From an uncultured virus (IMG/VR IMGVR_UViG_3300016474_001145) (lineage: Duplodnaviria; Heunggongvirae; Uroviricota; Caudoviricetes), in the IMG/VR virus record IMGVR_UViG_3300016474_001145, positions 51,808 through 71,807 of that record: 20,000 bases of DNA; one strand, written 5' to 3'. A program made the position numbers and the translations under genes. Position 1 is the stretch's first letter. Each line of letters begins with the position of its first letter. Positions 14,171-20,000 of the stretch are shown piece after piece. The notes below the pieces were generated by a model. It was not told where the DNA came from. It saw only the letters and a program-made list of their open reading frames with translations, and did no database searches.

Positions 14171-14245
14171 ACCAGGTTAGCTCAGAGGTAGAGCAGTGGA
14201 TCGATAATCCATTGGTCAGTGGTTCAATCCCACTACCTGGTACCA
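14171..14245 (+). tRNA. tRNA-Ile(GAT)
   Basis: Cloverleaf: ACCAGGT/ACCTGGT acceptor, loop TC-GAT-AA, encoded CCA. Confidence 0.9.
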
Positions 14246-14346
14246 TATTGAAGCACACTTGAAGACCCGTCAAGGACCAACGCTACGATGCATAGACATA
14301 TAAGCCGGGGCGAAAAAGTTTGGTATTAGTGTGCTTCAATATGGTA
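14241..14346 (+). ncRNA. Conserved-stem cassette A
   Basis: Perfect 19-bp inverted repeat taccatattgaagcacact/agtgtgcttcaatatggta enclosing 68 nt. Confidence 0.65.
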
Positions 14347-14350
14347 ATAA

Positions 14351-14430
14351 GGGGGATGGGACTGCTTGGGGTGGTCACCGCACTTGCAATGCGGGTATTC
14401 AGATCGGTTCGAATCCGTTATCCTCCACCA
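14351..14430 (+). tRNA. tRNA-Ala(TGC)
   Basis: G3:U70 pair; CCGCA-CTTGCAA-TGCGG arm; CCA end. Confidence 0.9.
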
Positions 14431-14438
14431 AAGAATAA

Positions 14439-14513
14439 GGTCTCAAAGTGTTCATGGACGCACGTTGGCTTGTCACGCCAAAAGAAGGGGATCGTTACCC
14501 CTTGGGACCGCCA
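14439..14513 (+). tRNA. tRNA-Asp(GTC)
   Basis: TTGGC-TTGTCAC-GCCAA arm; G73; atypical T-loop ATCGTTA; CCA end. Confidence 0.88.
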
Positions 14514-14519
14514 GTATTT

Positions 14520-14593
14520 GCGGGTATAACTTAGTGGTAAAGTAACTGGCTTTTAACCAGTAAATCGGAGTTCGATTCTCCGTGCCCGTACCA
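14520..14593 (+). tRNA. tRNA-Lys(TTT)
   Basis: ACTGG-CTTTTAA-CCAGT arm; TTCGATT T-loop; CCA end. Confidence 0.92.
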
Positions 14594-14597
14594 GTAT

Positions 14598-14647
14598 NNN
14601 NNNNNNNNNNNNNNNNNNNNNNNNNNNNNNNNNNNNNNNNNNNNNNN
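14598..14647. other. Assembly gap (50 N)
   Basis: Run of N within the tRNA array; true length unknown. Confidence 0.99.
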
Positions 14648-14657
14648 CAAGTTTTAT

Positions 14658-14730
14658 GCGGGTGTTCTCCTGGGAGAGGACTCAGCCTTCCAAGCTGATG
14701 GAGAGGGTTCGAATCCCTTCGCCCGCTCCA
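14658..14730 (+). tRNA. tRNA-Gly(TCC)
   Basis: GCGGG acceptor, TCAGC-CTTCCAA-GCTGA arm, U73, CCA. Confidence 0.9.
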
Positions 14731-14736
14731 ATTTAT

Positions 14737-14821
14737 CTAGGGTTCGCATAGCGGCGATTGCAGCGGCCTCCAAATCCGCCGGTTAAAACCCACGGGGGTT
14801 CGAGTCCCTCACCCTAGGCCA
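14737..14821 (+). tRNA. tRNA-Trp(CCA) with long variable region
   Basis: CTAGGGT/ACCCTAG acceptor, loop CT-CCA-AA, G73, extra arm CGGTTAAAACCCAC. Confidence 0.85.
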
Positions 14822-14828
14822 GTATTAT

Positions 14829-14906
14829 TGGGGGTTAGCTTAGTTAGGTCTAAAGCACTAGTCTTTGAAATTAGGATCACTGGTTCGAATCCAGTACCCC
14901 TTGCCA
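14829..14906 (+). tRNA. tRNA-Gln(TTG)
   Basis: CTAGT-CTTTGAA-ATTAG arm; weak 1-72 pair; GCCA end. Confidence 0.9.
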
Positions 14907-14912
14907 GTCAAT

Positions 14913-14987
14913 GGTGGTTGTAGCACAATGGAGTGCCCCGGTTTGTGAGACCGTTAAGTGTGAGTTCGAATCTCATCAACCACCCCA
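14913..14987 (+). tRNA. tRNA-His(GTG)
   Basis: G-1:C73 8-bp acceptor; loop TT-GTG-AG; CCA end. Confidence 0.9.
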
Positions 14988-14992
14988 GTAAT

Positions 14993-15069
14993 GCCGGTTT
15001 AGCTCAGTTGGCTAGAGCAGTGCTCTTGTAAAGCAAAGGTCGTCAGTTCGAATCCGACAACCGGCACCA
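14993..15069 (+). tRNA. tRNA-Thr(TGT)
   Basis: GCCGGTT/AACCGGC acceptor; loop CT-TGT-AA; CCA end. Confidence 0.92.
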
Positions 15070-15074
15070 AATAT

Positions 15075-15149
15075 CTGACCGTCGTTCAAGGGAAAGGACA
15101 TGGTTCTTCTAAATCCAGAATGGGGGTTCGAATCCCTCCGGTCAGGCCA
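15075..15149 (+). tRNA. tRNA-Arg(TCT)
   Basis: CTGACCG/CGGTCAG acceptor; loop CT-TCT-AA; GCCA end. Confidence 0.88.
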
Positions 15150-15155
15150 TTTTTA

Positions 15156-15244
15156 GGAAGGTTGGCAGAGTGGTAATGCACCGGATTGCTAATCCGCCGT
15201 TCACGAAAGTGGGCGCACAGGTTCGAATCCTGTACCTTCCGCCA
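15156..15244 (+). tRNA. tRNA-Ser(GCT)
   Basis: Loop TT-GCT-AA, long variable arm, G73, CCA. Confidence 0.92.
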
Positions 15245-15245
15245 A

Positions 15246-15321
15246 GGTGATGTAGCATAGCGGCTAATGCGGTACTTTCATAGGGTATCTATCGTAGGTT
15301 CGAGTCCTACCATCACTACCA
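15246..15321 (+). tRNA. tRNA-CAT (elongator Met or lysidine-Ile2)
   Basis: Loop TT-CAT-AG; lacks initiator features (no C1:A72 mismatch, no three G-C anticodon-stem pairs). Confidence 0.85.
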
Positions 15322-15326
15322 AATAC

Positions 15327-15418
15327 GGAGGGTTAACTAGTCTGGGACTAGCACTGTCTTGAAAACAGATGGATCGGTGATGAGCCGGTTGGAGTTCGAT
15401 TCTGCCATCCCTCCTCCA
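15327..15418 (+). tRNA. tRNA-Ser(TGA)
   Basis: Loop CT-TGA-AA, long variable arm, CCA; bulged T-stem. Confidence 0.82.
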
Positions 15419-15426
15419 ATAAGTGC

Positions 15427-15455
15427 TTGACATTAAATACTAATGTCTATATAAT
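15427..15455 (+). promoter_or_regulatory. Consensus sigma70 promoter inside tRNA array
   Basis: TTGACA-17-TATAAT; GACATTA/TAATGTC inverted repeat overlaps the -35 and spacer. Confidence 0.85.
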
Positions 15456-15478
15456 AAAGAAAATGTAGTAAAGAATAT

Positions 15479-15554
15479 TCCCCGGAATTCGAGCATGGTG
15501 CACGGACCTGACTGTTAATCAGAGATTAGCTGAGATCGTTACTCAGACGGGGAG
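15479..15554 (+). tRNA. tRNA-Asn(GTT), CCA not encoded
   Basis: TCCCCG/CGGGGA acceptor, loop CT-GTT-AA, T-loop ATCGTTA; ends G-CACA. Confidence 0.8.
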
Positions 15555-15583
15555 CACAAGAGTTTAGTCAAGACTCGAACTCT

Positions 15584-15591
15584 TATAAATA
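15584..15591 (+). promoter_or_regulatory. T4-type late promoter of homing endonuclease
   Basis: TATAAATA preceded by hairpin AAGAGTT...AACTCTT; AGGAG RBS follows. Confidence 0.7.
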
Positions 15592-15616
15592 CTTAGTATA
15601 CGGTTAGGAGATAACT

Positions 15617-16249
15617 ATGTACTATACAATTTATAAGATTACAAATCAAATTAATGGCAAATTTTATATAGGATCACATAAGACCAAAGATTTGAATGAC
15701 GATTATATGGGTTCGGGAAAATATCTTAGAGTAGCCCAAGAAAAATATGGTATTGAAAATTTTAAAAAAGAAATTCTTTTTATTTACGACAATCCCGATG
15801 ATATGTTTAATAAAGAAAAAGAAATCGTTTCCGAAGATTTTTTAGCTACAGAAAATACCTACAATTTAAAACAGGGTGGATTTGGCGGGTTTGACCTAGT
15901 TAATAAAACTGGGAAGAATTTATATGGAAATAACGGTAAAATAGGTTTTGGTGGCGAAAATCTTATTAAAGGTAGATATAGAAAAATTTCTCAAGAAGAA
16001 AAATCCAAAATTTCTAATACTATGAAAGAAGGATATAAAACAGGTAAATTTTTCCCCCCTTTCAAAGGAAAAACCCATACAGATGATACTAAAAAATTAA
16101 TTGGAAGTAAAAGTTCTATACATCAAGCAGGAAGCAAAAATTCTCAATTTGGAACGATGTGGATTACCAATGGATTAGATAATTTAAAAATACAAAAAAC
16201 TGCTGAGATACCTGAAGGTTGGGTTAAAGGCAGAAAGTTAAAAAAGTGA
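15617..16249 (+). mobile_element. Free-standing GIY-YIG homing endonuclease (Seg-like) with NUMOD3-like motif
   Basis: TIYKITNQINGKFYIGS, YMGSG and YNL motifs; FKGKTHTDDTKKLI; located in a tRNA cluster like T4 segB. Confidence 0.88.
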
Positions 16250-16323
16250 GGGTGGCAGAGTGGTCAAATGCAAGTGCCTGCAAAGCATTACAATCATCGG
16301 TTCAAATCCGATCCCTCACTCCA
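16246..16323 (+). tRNA. tRNA-Cys(GCA)
   Basis: GTGAGGG/CCCTCAC acceptor, loop CT-GCA-AA, U73, CCA. Confidence 0.9.
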
Positions 16324-16329
16324 GTTTAT

Positions 16330-16418
16330 GGGACCTGCCCCTATCAGCGTACTGTAAATCCGTCGTCAGAAAACAGATAGGAAGTAGACAAGTGGAGCGT
16401 TACCACCAGGGCCCACCA
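16330..16418 (+). ncRNA. Rearranged tRNA-Tyr(GTA)-like RNA lacking a canonical D-arm
   Basis: GGGACCT/AGGGCCC-ACCA acceptor, GCGTA-CTGTAAA-TCCGT arm, T-like arm GTGG-AGCGTTA-CCAC. Confidence 0.6.
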
Positions 16419-16422
16419 GATC

Positions 16423-16726
16423 CCCGGACCTATGCCGGTTATCAGTAGGCGCGACAAGACCAGCGTTAGGGGTCTTAGGTTTCTTTTTTCCTCCCTCCGG
16501 GCCATTCATCCGGCAGGGTAAAACAAAAGATAGGACCGTGTCATCCGATAAACAAGACACTGGACAGGGCAATACCTCAATCGGGGCTCTTGGGAAAGAG
16601 TAGCCGATATCATAACACGTGGCCATCAGCGTGTATAAAGGCGGCGAGTCTTAAACGAAGTCGGTGACGGGATAGGTAGAACAGTTACTCCGAAAGTGTA
16701 ACGCCGGATTTTGTAACCGGCAACCA
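16423..16726 (+). ncRNA. Block of unidentified structured RNA(s)
   Basis: GC-richer than coding DNA, many hairpins, units ending in CCA at 16504 and 16726; no credible ORF. Confidence 0.5.
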
Positions 16727-16824
16727 TATTGAAGCACATTCCTGCCGTATTGGTCTACGGTTCGAAAAGCGATAGGACCTAGAGTAACCGCCTAGGGAGT
16801 TTGATGAGTGTGTTTCAATATGGT
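16723..16824 (+). ncRNA. Conserved-stem cassette B
   Basis: accatattgaagcacattc/gagtgtgtttcaatatggt, 19 bp with 2 G-U pairs, enclosing 64 nt. Confidence 0.65.
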
Positions 16825-16947
16825 GAGTAGGAAGTAACTGTGAGCCGACTTGGTGAGGTTGCAGACTAAAGATCAACTTCGACCGCGTAGATAGTCCGGA
16901 CTATCGTTTGAAACGGAAGATGCATCCATCCCCTGCCCTACTGGCCA
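16822..16947 (+). ncRNA. Unidentified CCA-ending structured RNA between cassettes B and C
   Basis: Terminal stem GGUGAGUAGG/CCUACUGGCC then A; internal palindrome GATAGTCCGGACTATC. Confidence 0.45.
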
Positions 16948-17031
16948 TATTGAAGCACATACAGTTCCGCCCGATAGTAAGGGAGATAGCGACTAGCGTT
17001 GAAGGACTGTTTAAGTGTGTTTCAATATGGT
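16944..17031 (+). ncRNA. Conserved-stem cassette C
   Basis: gccatattgaagcacat/gtgtgtttcaatatggt, 17 bp with G-U pairs, enclosing 54 nt. Confidence 0.65.
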
Positions 17032-17077
17032 CTAGGAGTAATTAACCTGTACCATAGTCGGAAGTCATGACTCCGGC

Positions 17078-17212
17078 GATCCGTGGTAGTGTAATGGATA
17101 ACACGCAGCGAGGCGTGGGTTCGAGTCCCACCTGCTCCATCGGGGCAGTAGCTTAGAGGTTAGAGTGCAGCGAAATGAGGGTTTCGAAATCCCTCCCACA
17201 ATGGATCAACCA
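17078..17212 (+). ncRNA. Anticodon-less double-elbow tRNA-like RNA
   Basis: Two D-arms, two T-arms, two acceptor-like stems, no anticodon loop, 3' ACCA. Confidence 0.7.
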
Positions 17213-17225
17213 TAAATATGGTTAA

Positions 17226-17867
17226 ATGAAACAACACCGTATAGCGTTATTTCACAATCATCCGGAGTGCAGTGTAGAGTGTGCTCATGGCATCTTAAGA
17301 TCATTAAGTATGGCATTCGATGTCGACGTAATTAATAGAGATGAATTGACTGATGCTATACTGAGTAAGTATAAGATGATAGCTTTTCCTGGAGGCATAG
17401 GTGACAGTAATAGGTACTATAAATTATTAGCTGATAAACAAGATGTAATACAAAATCAAATTGCTAAAGGAAAACGATATCTTGGTATTTGCATGGGAGC
17501 TTATTGGGCCGGGCCTCATTACTTCAATATACTAGAAGACGTTAATCCTGTACAATATATAAAAAGACCTAATGCTGAGACAAATAGAAGTTATGGTACG
17601 GTTGTTAATGTTACGTGGAACGGACATGATGAAGAAATGTTTTTCTATGATGGTTGCAGTCTATTAGGTGATACTAATAAGTTTGAAACTATTGCTACTT
17701 ATAGTAATGGTGATCCAGCAGCAATCATACAAAAGAATATTGGAGTTATTGGTCCTCATCCAGAGAGTGATATTTACTGGTATAAGAAAAAATTCTTAAA
17801 GCCATATTGGCATGAGTACAGACATCATCAATTATTACTTAAATTTGTTAAACGATTAATGAGATAG
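17226..17867 (+). CDS. Class I glutamine amidotransferase-like (BPL_N-like) protein
   Basis: FPGG, YLGICMGAY nucleophile elbow and GPHPE catalytic triad motifs. Confidence 0.8.
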   Translation: MKQHRIALFHNHPECSVECAHGILRSLSMAFDVDVINRDELTDAILSKYKMIAFPGGIGDSNRYYKLLADKQDVIQNQIAKGKRYLGICMGAYWAGPHYFNILEDVNPVQYIKRPNAETNRSYGTVVNVTWNGHDEEMFFYDGCSLLGDTNKFETIATYSNGDPAAIIQKNIGVIGPHPESDIYWYKKKFLKPYWHEYRHHQLLLKFVKRLMR

Positions 17868-17939
17868 CCCTCCAAGTTAATCTAGTGAAAGCATACGCCT
17901 GAAGAGCGTGGGAGTCTGGGGCGTAACCAGAAGAGGGCA
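17867..17939 (+). tRNA. tRNA-Phe(GAA), divergent, CCA not encoded
   Basis: GCCCTC/GAGGGC acceptor, TACGC-CTGAAGA-GCGTG arm, T-loop GGCGTAA, ends A-CTA. Confidence 0.72.
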
Positions 17940-18028
17940 CTAAACATATGAATAAATATTTTATCTTTTTCAATAATCTTTATTCGGATACAAAGTTCAC
18001 TATTGTAGAACTTTTGTTTATAGTTTGC

Positions 18029-18057
18029 TTGATATCTTATACATTATACAATATAAT
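18029..18057 (+). promoter_or_regulatory. Sigma70-type promoter before tRNA-Pro
   Basis: TTGATA-17-TATAAT. Confidence 0.65.
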
Positions 18058-18067
18058 TAGTTATTAC

Positions 18068-18144
18068 CGGGGTGTAGCTTAGCCTGTTAAAGCGCCTGTT
18101 TTGGGAACAGGAGACCGAAAGTTAGAATCTTTCCATCCCGACCA
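18068..18144 (+). tRNA. tRNA-Pro(TGG)
   Basis: C1-G72, A73; CCTGT-TTTGGGA-ACAGG arm; CCA end. Confidence 0.9.
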
Positions 18145-18177
18145 CCTCTTTTATATTTCTACATACCATCTCAAAAG

Positions 18178-18570
18178 ATGATTAAAATTATAGTAAATGG
18201 TACTTTTGACATTATTCACGTTGGACATTTGAAATTATTGGCCTATGCTAAATCTCTTGGCACATTTCTAACTGTAGCCATAGATACAGATGAAAGAGTT
18301 AGAAGTAATAAGGGCAATTCTAGACCAGTAAACAATGAGTATGAACGTAAAACAATGTTGGAATTTTTAAAACCAGTTGATAATGTAATTCTATTTTCCA
18401 ATGACCAAGAATTAATAGATATCATTAAACAAAATGATATCATGGTCAAGGGTTCAGATTACCAAGGTAAATTTATAATTGGCGAAGAATTTTGTAAACA
18501 AATAATTTATTATGACAGAATCGAGGAATATTCAACAACGAAAAAAATTCGAAATATTATTACTAGGTGA
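18178..18570 (+). CDS. Cytidylyltransferase-family nucleotidyltransferase, HldE/RfaE domain II-like
   Basis: NGTFDIIHVGH (HxGH), KG...RP, VKGSDY and YSTT motifs. Confidence 0.85.
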   Translation: MIKIIVNGTFDIIHVGHLKLLAYAKSLGTFLTVAIDTDERVRSNKGNSRPVNNEYERKTMLEFLKPVDNVILFSNDQELIDIIKQNDIMVKGSDYQGKFIIGEEFCKQIIYYDRIEEYSTTKKIRNIITR

Positions 18571-19273
18571 TAACTGTATAGACGTATACCAATATGGGTA
18601 CGTTGATCGCATAAGTCCAGAAGCACCAGTACCAGTATTTAGATTAGATAAGGAAGAATCCAGGCCTGGTATGGCTGGAAATGTTCGTGCCAATCTAATT
18701 CAGTTGGGATGCAATGTAAATTTTGTACATGGTAAGACATCTACAAAGACCAGACTAATAGACATCAGAAGCAAACAACATATAGTTAGAATAGATAATG
18801 ATGTCTTGTCTGAATCAATTAACCTATTGACTACATATCTATACGATGCAATCGTTATCAGTGATTACAACAAAGGTACCATTTCTCTTGACCTAATAAA
18901 AGAGATACGACAAGATTTCAATGGTCCTATTTTTGTTGATACTAAGAAAACTGATTTAAAAGAATTACAAGACTGTATAGTAAAAATTAATGCTTTAGAA
19001 TATTCTTTACTTAAATCTGAATGTGAGAATCTTATTGTCACATTGGGAAGCGAAGGTGTTAGATACAGAGATAAAATTTTTTCAGCTGTACCCATAGAAG
19101 TTGTGGATACGTGTGGTGCAGGCGATACTTTTCTAGCAGCACTTTGTTACGGATTTTTAACTAATCATGATATGATCAAAGCAATAAAATTTGCTAATAA
19201 GGCCGCTGCCATAACAGTACAACACAGCGGAGTATATTCTCCGACATTAGAACAAATTGCGGGTATGATGTAA
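18512..19273 (+). CDS. PfkB-family sugar kinase, HldE/RfaE domain I-like
   Basis: RISPEAPVPV, ISDYNKG and DTCGAGDTF motifs. Confidence 0.87.
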   Translation: MTESRNIQQRKKFEILLLGDNCIDVYQYGYVDRISPEAPVPVFRLDKEESRPGMAGNVRANLIQLGCNVNFVHGKTSTKTRLIDIRSKQHIVRIDNDVLSESINLLTTYLYDAIVISDYNKGTISLDLIKEIRQDFNGPIFVDTKKTDLKELQDCIVKINALEYSLLKSECENLIVTLGSEGVRYRDKIFSAVPIEVVDTCGAGDTFLAALCYGFLTNHDMIKAIKFANKAAAITVQHSGVYSPTLEQIAGMM

Positions 19274-19332
19274 TGGTAACCTGAATCCTTGCCAAGGATT
19301 ATTTGCGAGTTCGATTCTCGCTACCCGCTCCA
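19259..19332 (+). tRNA. tRNA-Gly(GCC)
   Basis: GCGGGTA/TACCCGC acceptor, AATCC-TTGCCAA-GGATT arm, U73, CCA. Confidence 0.9.
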
Positions 19333-19340
19333 TTTAATTT

Positions 19341-19416
19341 GCCGAGTTAGCTCAGTTGGTAGAGCGGCACGTTTACACCGTGTAGGTCGGGAGTTCGAGA
19401 CTCTCACTCGGTACCA
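19341..19416 (+). tRNA. tRNA-Val(TAC)
   Basis: GCACG-TTTACAC-CGTGT arm; A73; CCA end. Confidence 0.92.
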
Positions 19417-19427
19417 AAGGAATAAAA

Positions 19428-20000
19428 ATGTCAGCAACATTTCTCACAGCAGATCCTCACTTCGGTCACGAAGGTGTGTGCAGATTTCTTCGTAAAGACG
19501 GAACAAAACTTCGCCCATGGAATTCAGCAGAAGAAATGGATGAAGCTATGGTAAAACTCTGGAATGAAACTGTAAGTAAAAATGATAAAGTCTACATGCT
19601 TGGTGATATCGTCATCAACCGAAAAGCGTTACCTACACTTAGTAGACTTAATGGAGACAAGATTCTAATAAGAGGCAATCACGACATATTTAAACTAGGA
19701 GATTACTCTAAATACTTTAGAGATATTAGAGCTACTCATATTATGAAAGGTCTTATTTGCACTCATATTCCTATACACCCAGACAGCCTTGCTAGATTTG
19801 GATGTAATGTGCATGGACATCTGCACGAAAAACGAGTTATGCGTAATGACGAAATAGATAATAGATACATTTGTGTTAGTGTCGAGCATACAGAGTTCAA
19901 ACCTATTTCTTTAGAAGATCTTAGAGATAGAATTTTAAAGCAAGGTGGTGAATTGGAAATGCGAGGTGTTTCATCTTGGTGTGACATGCAACCTAGTTAG
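19428..20000 (+). CDS. Calcineurin-like metallophosphoesterase
   Basis: DPHFGH, LGD, GNHD and HGHLH motifs; AAGGA RBS. Confidence 0.88.
   Translation: MSATFLTADPHFGHEGVCRFLRKDGTKLRPWNSAEEMDEAMVKLWNETVSKNDKVYMLGDIVINRKALPTLSRLNGDKILIRGNHDIFKLGDYSKYFRDIRATHIMKGLICTHIPIHPDSLARFGCNVHGHLHEKRVMRNDEIDNRYICVSVEHTEFKPISLEDLRDRILKQGGELEMRGVSSWCDMQPS

Follow-up and report, generated by a model that had tools for sequence, protein, structure and literature searches.

A near-standard stem frame around unrelated small RNAs in phage tRNA arrays, a candidate RNase III processing stalk

Background

Phage tRNA clusters also contain stable RNAs that are not tRNAs, such as the species 1 and 2 RNAs of T4 (rnaC, rnaD) and the small RNAs of the T5 tRNA region; we know of no common frame with swappable contents among them. 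In the RNase III stalks of 16S and 23S rRNA and at T7 early sites such as R1.1, one RNA of a polycistronic precursor is enclosed by a helix that carries a proximal and a distal box, and a double cut leaves 2-nt overhangs, thereby freeing and protecting the products (available portions of PMC8708148, PMC3867540 and PMC1540722). The intervening sequences of 23S rRNA are variable, stem-closed inserts in a stable-RNA precursor that are excised by RNase III (PMC8708148, available portion). Repeated elements where modules shuffle are represented by the PeSL cassettes of T4-type phages, which flank protein genes and consist of a promoter and a terminator (PMC2839356, available portion). Bacterial Y RNAs (YrlA) combine a terminal stem with a variable, sometimes tRNA-like domain, and their genes lie within 4 kb of a Ro60/TROVE gene (PMC4201824, available portion).

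In this study, a stem that recurs three times in the tRNA array of a T4-like phage was analysed in a window of 20,000 nt (the whole stretch of DNA examined, to which all positions refer). The arm pair, hereafter the frame, encloses a different interior, or cargo, in each copy, and no description of it was found in the literature searched.

Methods

Loci were oriented by T-loop counts; those that could not be oriented (14/122 and 20/231) were left out, and 348 were retained in the final set. RNase III rules were those of E. coli, which may not be those of the host, and helices were scored with the in-vivo pair score from PMC6212723 (Table S4; threshold −25.5). The 24 RNA runs contain 0.08–0.16 of the sampled words; four of them were examined, over a stretch that does not reach copy A.

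Results

Three stems of 17–19 bp were located at 14241–14346, 16723–16824 and 16944–17031 around unrelated interiors (Table 1), and the 5' end of each is the CCA of the preceding RNA. The arms and coordinates given in the initial annotation proved exact. The CCA at the start of frame A belongs to tRNA-Ile, and frames B and C appear to start on the CCA ends of non-tRNA hairpin RNAs. The arm 13-mer has nine matches at ≤2 mismatches in the window, six of which are the arms, against 1.14 expected; none of 200 shuffled windows contained nine or more. The region upstream of frame B (16626–16726) gave 34 nhmmer hits, 13 of them distinct, and RNA X is represented in RNA-library contigs. The 3' arm of B can also pair with the 5' arm of C around RNA X (27-bp helix, 16805–16963), which leaves the predicted cuts unchanged.

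Table 1. Positions of the three frames, their cargos and the neighbouring RNAs in the window
Feature	Position	Strand	Remarks
tRNA-Ile(GAU)	14171..14245	+	frame A has its outer end on the discriminator base and CCA
Frame A 5' arm	14241..14259	+	19 bp; predicted RNase III cut 14249^14250; score −20.4
Cargo A, 68 nt	14260..14327	+	predicted released RNA 14250–14339 (90 nt)
Frame A 3' arm	14328..14346	+	predicted cut 14339^14340; tRNA-Ala (start 14351) would keep an 11-nt leader
Hairpin RNA with CCA end, upstream partner of frame B	16660..16726	+	conserved; from the fold, 5' end putative
Frame B 5' arm	16723..16741	+	19 bp; predicted cut 16730^16731; score −22.7
Cargo B, 64 nt	16742..16805	+	predicted released RNA 16731–16818 (88 nt)
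Frame B 3' arm	16806..16824	+	predicted cut 16818^16819; GG is the putative 5' end of RNA X
RNA X, 126 nt	16822..16947	+	acceptor-like terminal stem and CCA; 23 nhmmer hits, 8 distinct
Frame C 5' arm	16944..16960	+	17 bp; predicted cut 16951^16952; score −25.5
Cargo C, 54 nt	16961..17014	+	predicted released RNA 16952–17025 (74 nt)
Frame C 3' arm	17015..17031	+	predicted cut 17025^17026

When the arm pair was searched and the interiors were clustered, as had been proposed, the pair was found reused around 217 clusters of 398 distinct interiors at 348 oriented loci in viral and metagenome contigs, including the window. No true copy was detected in 185,579 prokaryote genomes, where the single pattern match was an unrelated palindrome without a tRNA. 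A blastn search of 50,697 cultured phage records with positions 16640–17040 returned no match, and four cultured relatives chosen from the best UvsX hits contained no frame and two lone one-mismatch matches, equal to the control. Two stems 3' of tRNAs in phage Mendera differ in sequence, present no clear RNase III register and were not counted. A shared phage partner protein was also considered and rejected, the genes common to four carriers being generic (Hsp20, metallophosphoesterase and replication genes). The arm motif is absent from the readable tables, mostly metadata, in the available part of the IMG/VR catalogue of PMC10690425, which could hold single cargos.

Pairing of the frame is under selection, and compensatory change keeps the helix on the transcribed strand. 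The helix spans about 18 bp, the first of them formed by the discriminator base and CCA of the preceding RNA. With the tRNA CCA as the only anchor, a stem of ≥16/18 was found in 122 of 877 trailers and in 3 of 382 controls. Positions left free by the search were paired in 88.9% of cases compared with 56% after shuffling, and the central pair among 196 cargos was G-U in 124, G-C in 47, A-U in 23 and A-C in 2; the elements are related by descent, and counts over them are therefore not independent. The folding z of copies A, B and C was −5.6, −5.5 and −6.2, respectively. Copies B and C are more stable on the + strand (−40.3 and −36.3 kcal/mol) than on the − strand (−30.8 and −24.5 kcal/mol) because of G-U pairs. 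These are the pairs from which RNA-level selection had been read; the fold of copy A is strand-symmetric. Across the frames, G-U wobbles are biased to the tRNA strand.

This strand bias also counts against a DNA-level mobile unit inserting at tRNA ends, whether of MITE type or a cassette for site-specific recombination. Such a unit would agree with the finding of at least two upstream RNAs for 38/40 cargo clusters, of at least two cargos for 30/37 upstream groups, and of variable frame presence in 34/52 tRNA groups. However, ordinary tRNAs swap neighbours at least as often as cargos do (upstream neighbour kept in 228/1104 tRNA pairs and 103/319 cargo pairs), and the five near-complete carriers lack a tyrosine recombinase and a reverse transcriptase. 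Target-site duplications, which had been named as the mark of a MITE-type element, were found in 0/223 elements (4–9 nt, four arm boundaries), and the interiors lack the homogeneity of a MITE, with 217 clusters among 398. The mobile unit is largely refuted and very unlikely. Retron msr-msd units are inverted repeats around a structured RNA with an adjacent reverse transcriptase; the latter was present in 0/5 near-complete carriers, and this candidate was rejected. A likeness of the frame 5' arm to the 3' ends of CRISPR repeats was dropped because the resembling positions vary with compensation.

The RNase III-sized duplex would serve as the processing handle suggested in the initial annotation, and it fits both the E. 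coli consensus and the in-vivo score in one register, namely, CCAUAUU^GAAG / CAA^UAUGG. Of the 16 letters defined in the consensus WNAGWGNNCWUNNN^NAWGNNCWCUNW (PMC4357697), the two arms match means of 11.0 and 11.6 in this register and ≤7.6 in the 11 other registers. By the in-vivo pair score, the predicted register is best in 120/196 cargos (median −22.6) under the E. coli rules; it is best in 71/132 distinct arm pairs and in 33/72 arm pairs that differ from the consensus in at least three places. A total of 165/196 cargos lie above the threshold, and a median of 1.5% of shuffled helices score equally well. A competing register lies 2 nt further in and ranks first in 45/196, and in frame C two other registers score −25.6.

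G-C at proximal-box position 2 blocks RNase III binding (PMC1540722, available portion), and the 132 arm pairs have 0 G-C and 0 mismatches there, in line with the A-U/U-A rule. U-A plus U-G, the optimum for a distal box, is present on the inner side only (U-A in 186/196, U-G in 175/196), the outer distal box being missing, and a helix of at least 11 bp runs from the cut to the distal box on the transcribed strand. Two positions deviate from the optimum. The pair beside the scissile bond (proximal-box position 4) is G-C or C-G in 66/132 arm pairs, G-C being the commonest; this pair is a catalytic antideterminant in vitro that slows cleavage 7–14-fold (PMC1540722, available portion) and occurs in 14/85 in-vivo sites (PMC6212723). 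Between the cuts, both pairs are mostly U-A, compared with the G-C preferred in vivo. Both rules are preferences rather than absolute requirements.

A Y-RNA-like design, with Ro60/Rsr bound to the stem and the effector function placed in the cargo, would share the layout of stem plus variable domain and the T-arms found in some cargos, and AUUGAAG resembles the GNCGAAN0-1G motif (PMC4201824, available portion). However, the motif is mismatched at two defined positions, both of which vary, so that the frame falls outside it; a TROVE gene is absent from the phage's own contig and from 20 carrier records (five of them ≥90% complete), and no YrlA match lies on any frame among the loci scanned. We regard this design as most improbable.

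RNA-library contigs were inspected around RNA X and copy C. In one run (X4), a contig over 16840–16974 (depth 45.7) extends 30 nt into copy C (depth 54.6) and spans the predicted cut at 16951; uncut molecules or DNA are therefore present there. An 89-nt contig covering exactly copy C was rejected as a record of RNA ends because the neighbouring contig overlaps it by 30 nt, and its ends are attributed to an assembly branch point. No back-joint was listed among the contigs, and an RNA ligase occurs in only 3/5 near-complete carriers. The earlier interpretation, a handle that releases or circularises variable small RNAs, is retained for release, as a probable function, and finds no support for circularisation.

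The cargos comprise about 200 unrelated RNAs of 29–134 nt. Interiors shorter than 20 nt occur in only 3/431 frames and the other 428 carry cargo; frames are almost never empty, and therefore the cargo matters. The modular small-RNA cassettes that had been proposed gain support from this, from frame covariation, from the agreement with the RNase III consensus and in-vivo score, and from the lack of target-site duplications. At least two two-sided changes were found in 25/45 cargo families, with folds derived from the same alignments. In the window, cargo A has three variants, one diverged; cargo B has four variants that are ≥97% identical and show neither covariation nor two-sided changes; and cargo C has four variants, in four different frame variants, with one two-sided change, the search that yielded them having fixed the stretch with the putative kissing loops. 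The B helices and the C three-way junction noticed in the initial annotation appear in minimum-energy folds, but interiors A, B and C folded by themselves show no gain over shuffles (z 0.22, 0.03 and −1.34). The suggested search of cargos against Rfam was unproductive: with Rfam 15 at gathering score, no frame or cargo matched, cargo A included, in the window (tRNA only) or in the 30 of about 410 loci scanned (20 with tRNA only; 10, credited with 42 distinct cargos, with tRNA plus one group I intron). As guides to the phage's own contig, cargos were rejected, the longest other exact match being 10–11 nt.

These data also allow another reading to be weighed, in which the frame is only tRNA-processing punctuation. 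The interior would then be excised waste, as intervening sequences are in 23S rRNA, or what is left of a captured RNA that was parked there. The high proportion of singletons (137/217 clusters), the stability of cargos alone being no greater than that of shuffles (median z −0.47; 7% of 217 below −2) and the presence of tRNA T-arm words in 22/217 clusters against 2.3 expected are consistent with it. However, interior lengths begin sharply near 30 nt, families at 55–75% identity retain invariant loops and compensated helices, the same cargo persists across different frame variants and contexts, and the frame occurs on only 211/1463 tRNAs. Punctuation alone is an improbable explanation.

The choice of upstream tRNA is uneven. 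The U34-thiolated tRNAs are often followed by a frame (Lys(UUU) 80/107, Glu(UUC) 38/97, Gln(UUG) 14/60), compared with tRNA-Met (1/116), Asp (1/81) and His (0/43), a bias that may reflect ancestry; one search pattern also enriched a Lys-linked arm variant. Anticodon nucleases attack tRNAs Lys, Glu and Gln. A frame that binds RNase III and is cut slowly or never could serve as a decoy for RNase III, or could clamp the CCA of selected tRNAs in a paired state until they are modified, with cargos as passive passengers or clamp tuners. The tRNA preference, the contigs across the predicted cut, and the G-C beside the scissile bond, which uncouples binding from cleavage in vitro (PMC1540722, available portion), would fit. 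However, tRNAs that look normal would be kept from maturing if the frame stayed uncut, cargo would be unnecessary in frames that nearly always carry it, an ARAGORN tRNA begins only 176/398 frames, and the bias is open to the ancestral explanation above. This rival is unlikely, although it deserves slightly more weight than punctuation alone.

Discussion

Judged from sequence and folding, the arms are probably a standardised RNase III processing stalk in a polycistronic stable-RNA transcript of the phage. Carriers come from unrelated phage lineages and 0/5 near-complete carriers have an RNase III gene, which points to the host enzyme. Host RNase III would cleave both strands with a 2-nt 3' overhang, thereby releasing the upstream tRNA with a 4-nt trailer that is then trimmed, while the following RNA would keep a leader, at its shortest 3 nt, for RNase P. 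The freed cargo would be an RNA of 74–90 nt in the window copies, with predicted 5' ends at GAAGCAC (predicted start GAAGCACA, 3' end UUCAA) and an 11-bp stem shielding both ends. Control of upstream 3' maturation, offered earlier as an alternative, is compatible with this scheme but not separate from cargo release, because one cut would leave the tRNA with its 4-nt trailer. In the literature searched, no account was found of RNase III freeing a tRNA 3' end by cleavage 4 nt past the CCA. The cargos would be separate small non-coding RNA genes, and recombination across the whole array, which shuffles the tRNAs as well, may reassort the units.

For the action of the cargos, our leading but tentative proposal is that they are trans-acting structured RNAs, which serve as ligands of host proteins or as decoys for them. 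A broader view is more doubtful: unrelated phage lineages may share a plug-in RNA expression format, in which any framed folded RNA is cut out by host RNase III and end-protected. The format would supply more than 200 kinds of RNA decoys or ligands, which turn over quickly, are directed against host proteins of defence and translation, and sit by preference behind tRNAs targeted by anticodon nucleases. If cargos are decoys, they would form a large RNA-based counter-defence repertoire. As a sequence tag, the frame marks hundreds of phage small RNAs that are not yet catalogued and predicts their exact ends, and thus the old question of the non-tRNA RNAs of phage tRNA clusters becomes testable cargo by cargo. 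Frames also predict tRNA 3'-end release through a cut 4 nt past CCA, constitute a natural and much-varied set of predicted RNase III substrates, and may offer a scaffold on which stable small RNAs could be expressed.

RNA X and the RNA before frame B look like the T4 species 1/2 and T5 kind, a likeness of description. The remaining comparisons extend as far as the available portions of the sources cited above. Frames share with YrlA the terminal stem and variable domain, but have no Ro60 gene nearby, depart from its motif and possess a stem that fits RNase III rules. As in PeSLs, modules shuffle around a repeated element; in contrast, the contents are RNA, the frames are without promoter consensus and the shuffling is not frame-specific. 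Frames resemble 23S rRNA intervening sequences in their variable, stem-closed interiors and predicted excision, but lie between RNAs rather than within one and hold conserved, selected-looking families. The bracketing helix and predicted double cut are those of the rRNA and T7 stalks, whereas the phage stalk is near-standard, is reused around the whole range of cargos, has the CCA of the preceding tRNA as its base, and would remain on the product as its cap.

Frames in the window and adjacent features

The window is the 3′-terminal part of a virus record of 71.8 kb (completeness 40%), and the best matches of its DNA polymerase and UvsX among cultured viruses are T4-type phages (50–64% identity). 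Three units, each with paired 17–19-bp arms (the frame) around a variable interior (the cargo), were confirmed at the positions of the initial annotation. Six occurrences of the arm word are arms, where approximately one match would be expected, and each unit has a folding z of approximately −5.5 or lower. The claimed RNA-strand signature also stood for B and C, which G-U pairs make more stable by 10–12 kcal/mol on the tRNA strand. As had been read, each 5′ arm begins at the CCA of a preceding RNA, namely, tRNA-Ile (A), a 67-nt hairpin RNA (B) and RNA X (C); the 5′ end of RNA X appears to be the GG of frame B's 3′ arm. Cargos folded alone exhibited no unusual stability, and the known relatives of cargos B and C are too alike to test the helices and kissing loops, which are proposed structures.

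Coordinates of frames, predicted RNAs and neighbouring features in the window
Feature	Position	Strand	Remark
tRNA array	14171–16323	+	13 genes by ARAGORN
Frame A	14241–14346
Predicted released cargo A	14250–14339
tRNA gene	14351–14430		Ala per ARAGORN
tRNA gene	14737–14821		Trp per ARAGORN
tRNA gene	14829–14906		Gln per ARAGORN
tRNA-like gene	15327–15414		overlooked by ARAGORN; 44 bits against tRNA-Sec
Sigma-70 consensus	15427–15455		perfect; upstream of homing-endonuclease-like gene
tRNA-like gene	15478–15556		overlooked by ARAGORN; judged by eye
GIY-YIG/NUMOD3 homing-endonuclease-like gene	15617–16249		within tRNA array; Pfam matches weak
Stretch without protein genes	to about 17215		follows tRNA array
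tRNA-like gene	16330–16420		overlooked by ARAGORN; judged by eye
Conserved ~180-nt RNA	16435–16620		nhmmer 29 hits, 14 distinct
Frame B	16723–16824
Predicted released cargo B	16731–16818
RNA X	16822–16947		126 nt, between frames B and C
Frame C	16944–17031
Predicted released cargo C	16952–17025
Conserved double tRNA-like RNA	17040–17215		nhmmer 18 hits, 10 distinct
Downstream genes	17226–19997		glutamine-amidotransferase-like, cytidylyltransferase-like, sugar-kinase-like (by eye) and metallophosphoesterase, tRNAs in between

In the RNA-library contigs, frame B was covered weakly, RNA X and frame C reached a depth of ~46–55 in sequencing run X4, and one contig spans the predicted cut ahead of C. 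These contigs demonstrate presence in RNA libraries only and are uninformative on ends, strand and level.

Several neighbouring features were recorded. The conserved ~180-nt RNA had a contig depth of ~870–980 over 16440–16528 in RNA runs X1 and X4, an adapter-bearing loose end ahead of its first stem and no Rfam match; its relatives have a CCA 3′ end, often followed by a frame. The double tRNA-like RNA holds two tandem D/T-arm modules inside a single terminal stem, and two small hairpins lie ahead of it; its YrlA and tmRNA scores were weak, and its relatives often lie between two frames. Relatives may lack the homing-endonuclease-like gene, because one RNA-run contig skips 15481–16295. Other anticodons look possible for the Ala, Trp and Gln genes (Cys, and a TTTGAAA loop at 14863–14869), and the best phage matches of the first are annotated as Ala or Cys. 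Relatives of the metallophosphoesterase were present in 4/4 phages bearing frames (carriers) that were compared.

Extent and carriers of the frame family

Pattern scans yielded at least 121, 9, 100 and 126 viral loci and 26 metagenome loci, and family counts rest on the 348 loci allowing orientation. The arm pair proved to be conserved beyond the window with diverse interiors: among the matches listed, 398 distinct interiors (29–134 nt) fell into 217 clusters, including 137 singletons. A CCA stands at the frame start in 318/398, and 176 of these are the end of an ARAGORN tRNA. With strict arms, 95 elements have a tRNA ≤60 nt upstream, and in 85 of them the tRNA's CCA is precisely where the element begins; of 77 downstream tRNAs, 30 have the GG of the frame's 3′ arm as their start.

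Carriers include 345-kb, 150-kb and 98-kb phages, the last sharing only 9–17 ORFs with the others. Three carriers encode permuted tmRNAs with ANDE-FALAA-type tags, which suggest proteobacterial hosts. The sole match in 185,579 prokaryote genomes was an unrelated palindrome, and cultured phages gave no match to the frame. Long stems in the cultured Stenotrophomonas phage Mendera (loci L422, 5681–5880, and L423, 1482–1554; interiors 156 and 41 nt) begin 1–3 nt past tRNA-Gly and tRNA-Leu; these were rejected as frames, being unrelated in sequence and having no clear RNase III register. A group I intron (71 bits) was also observed within a phage tRNA array (L158, 2053–2248).

Frames followed tRNA-Lys(UUU) in 80/107 cases, Glu(UUC) in 38/97, Leu(UAA) in 11/32, Leu(UAG) in 13/42, Gln(UUG) in 14/60, Ile(GAU) in 12/56, Met in 1/116, Asp in 1/81 and Ser(GCU), His and Arg(UCU) in none, a bias that may be inflated by ancestry and search patterns. 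Behind tRNA-Lys, 46 different cargo clusters were found.

Selection on pairing and exchange of units

Pairing of the frame arms is a selected property. Positions that one scan did not constrain (three per arm) pair in 88.9% of cells across 48 distinct arm pairs, compared with 56% (maximum 65%) in a shuffled-partner control. At the third pair inside the core, which was never constrained, 85% of 196 cargos are paired, and six types of pair are represented. Counts at the central pair are 124 G-U, 47 G-C, 23 A-U and 2 A-C; therefore, it is on the tRNA strand that the arms pair. A tRNA-CCA-anchored search recovered stems of at least 16 of 18 pairs in 122/877 trailers versus 3/382 control starts.

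A MITE-like DNA element would be betrayed by target-site duplications; these were detected in 0/223 elements, and the units do not qualify as MITEs. Units are freely exchanged: 38/40 cargo clusters occur behind two or more upstream RNAs, and 30/37 groups of upstream RNAs precede two or more cargos. Neighbours of ordinary tRNAs change no less frequently, so the arms do not stand out as sites of crossover. A single empty site was observed.

Fit to RNase III rules

Judged from sequence, the distribution of invariant and variable positions agrees with the rules for RNase III; scoring used those of E. coli, which may not be the host's. In the predicted register (CCAUAUU^GAAG / CAA^UAUGG), the two arms agree with the consensus in PMC4357697 at 11.0 and 11.6 of its 16 defined letters on average, compared with at most 7.6 in 11 alternative registers. 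Using the in-vivo pair scores of PMC6212723 (Table S4), this register was best in 120/196 cargos (median −22.6; A −20.4, B −22.7, C −25.5), and 165/196 exceeded the strict threshold, although any helix yields good scores in its central registers. With each arm pair counted once, it was best in 71/132 pairs and in 33/72 divergent pairs, counts affected by shared ancestry.

According to PMC1540722, the optimal distal box is U-A plus U-G, G-C at proximal-box position 2 blocks binding and one box set suffices. The frames possess this distal box, and G-C or a mismatch occurs at proximal-box position 2 in 0/132 arm pairs. Of all 46 mismatches, 29 lie at the pair adjoining the predicted cut. Against the fit, this adjoining pair is G-C/C-G in 66/132, which slows cleavage in vitro (PMC1540722), U-A rather than G-C pairs lie between the predicted cuts and the outer distal box is missing. 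Real sites are rarely perfect consensus matches (PMC5371410).

Proposed processing and cargo role

One double cut would release the upstream RNA, still carrying a trailer of 4 nt, together with the cargo, capped by an 11-bp stem with a 2-nt overhang, and would leave the downstream RNA with a short leader. The RNase III gene is absent from 5/5 near-complete carriers, so we infer a host enzyme. Alternatively, the 3′ arm of frame B and the 5′ arm of frame C can pair with each other and enclose RNA X, which would recreate the same duplex and the same predicted cut sites.

The frame appears to exist for the sake of its cargo, because interiors are shorter than 20 nt in only 3/431 frames and cargo families carry two-sided changes: 25/45 families with at least three variants have two or more, often around invariant loops, although the folds derive from the same alignments and lean favourable. 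tRNA T-arm words are enriched (22/217 clusters versus 2.3 expected). Putative structured ligands or decoys are favoured over antisense guides, because cargos A–C have no match longer than 11 nt elsewhere in their contig. Cargo cluster 6 (L025, L062, L065 and L072) has an 8-nt self-complementary segment, altered yet palindromic in three variants, which suggests that its RNAs may dimerise via loop pairing.

Comparison with known systems

Frames and cargos belong to no Rfam family among the loci scanned. Nor do they qualify as retrons or as Y RNAs (criteria for the latter from PMC4201824). The frame was not found described in the literature searched, although PMC10690425 may contain single cargos. 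The frame is a real and widespread variation on a known processing signal, apparently undescribed, and it tags a large number of new small RNAs. By analogy, it would work like the rRNA and T7 RNase III stalks, as described in PMC8708148 and PMC3867540.
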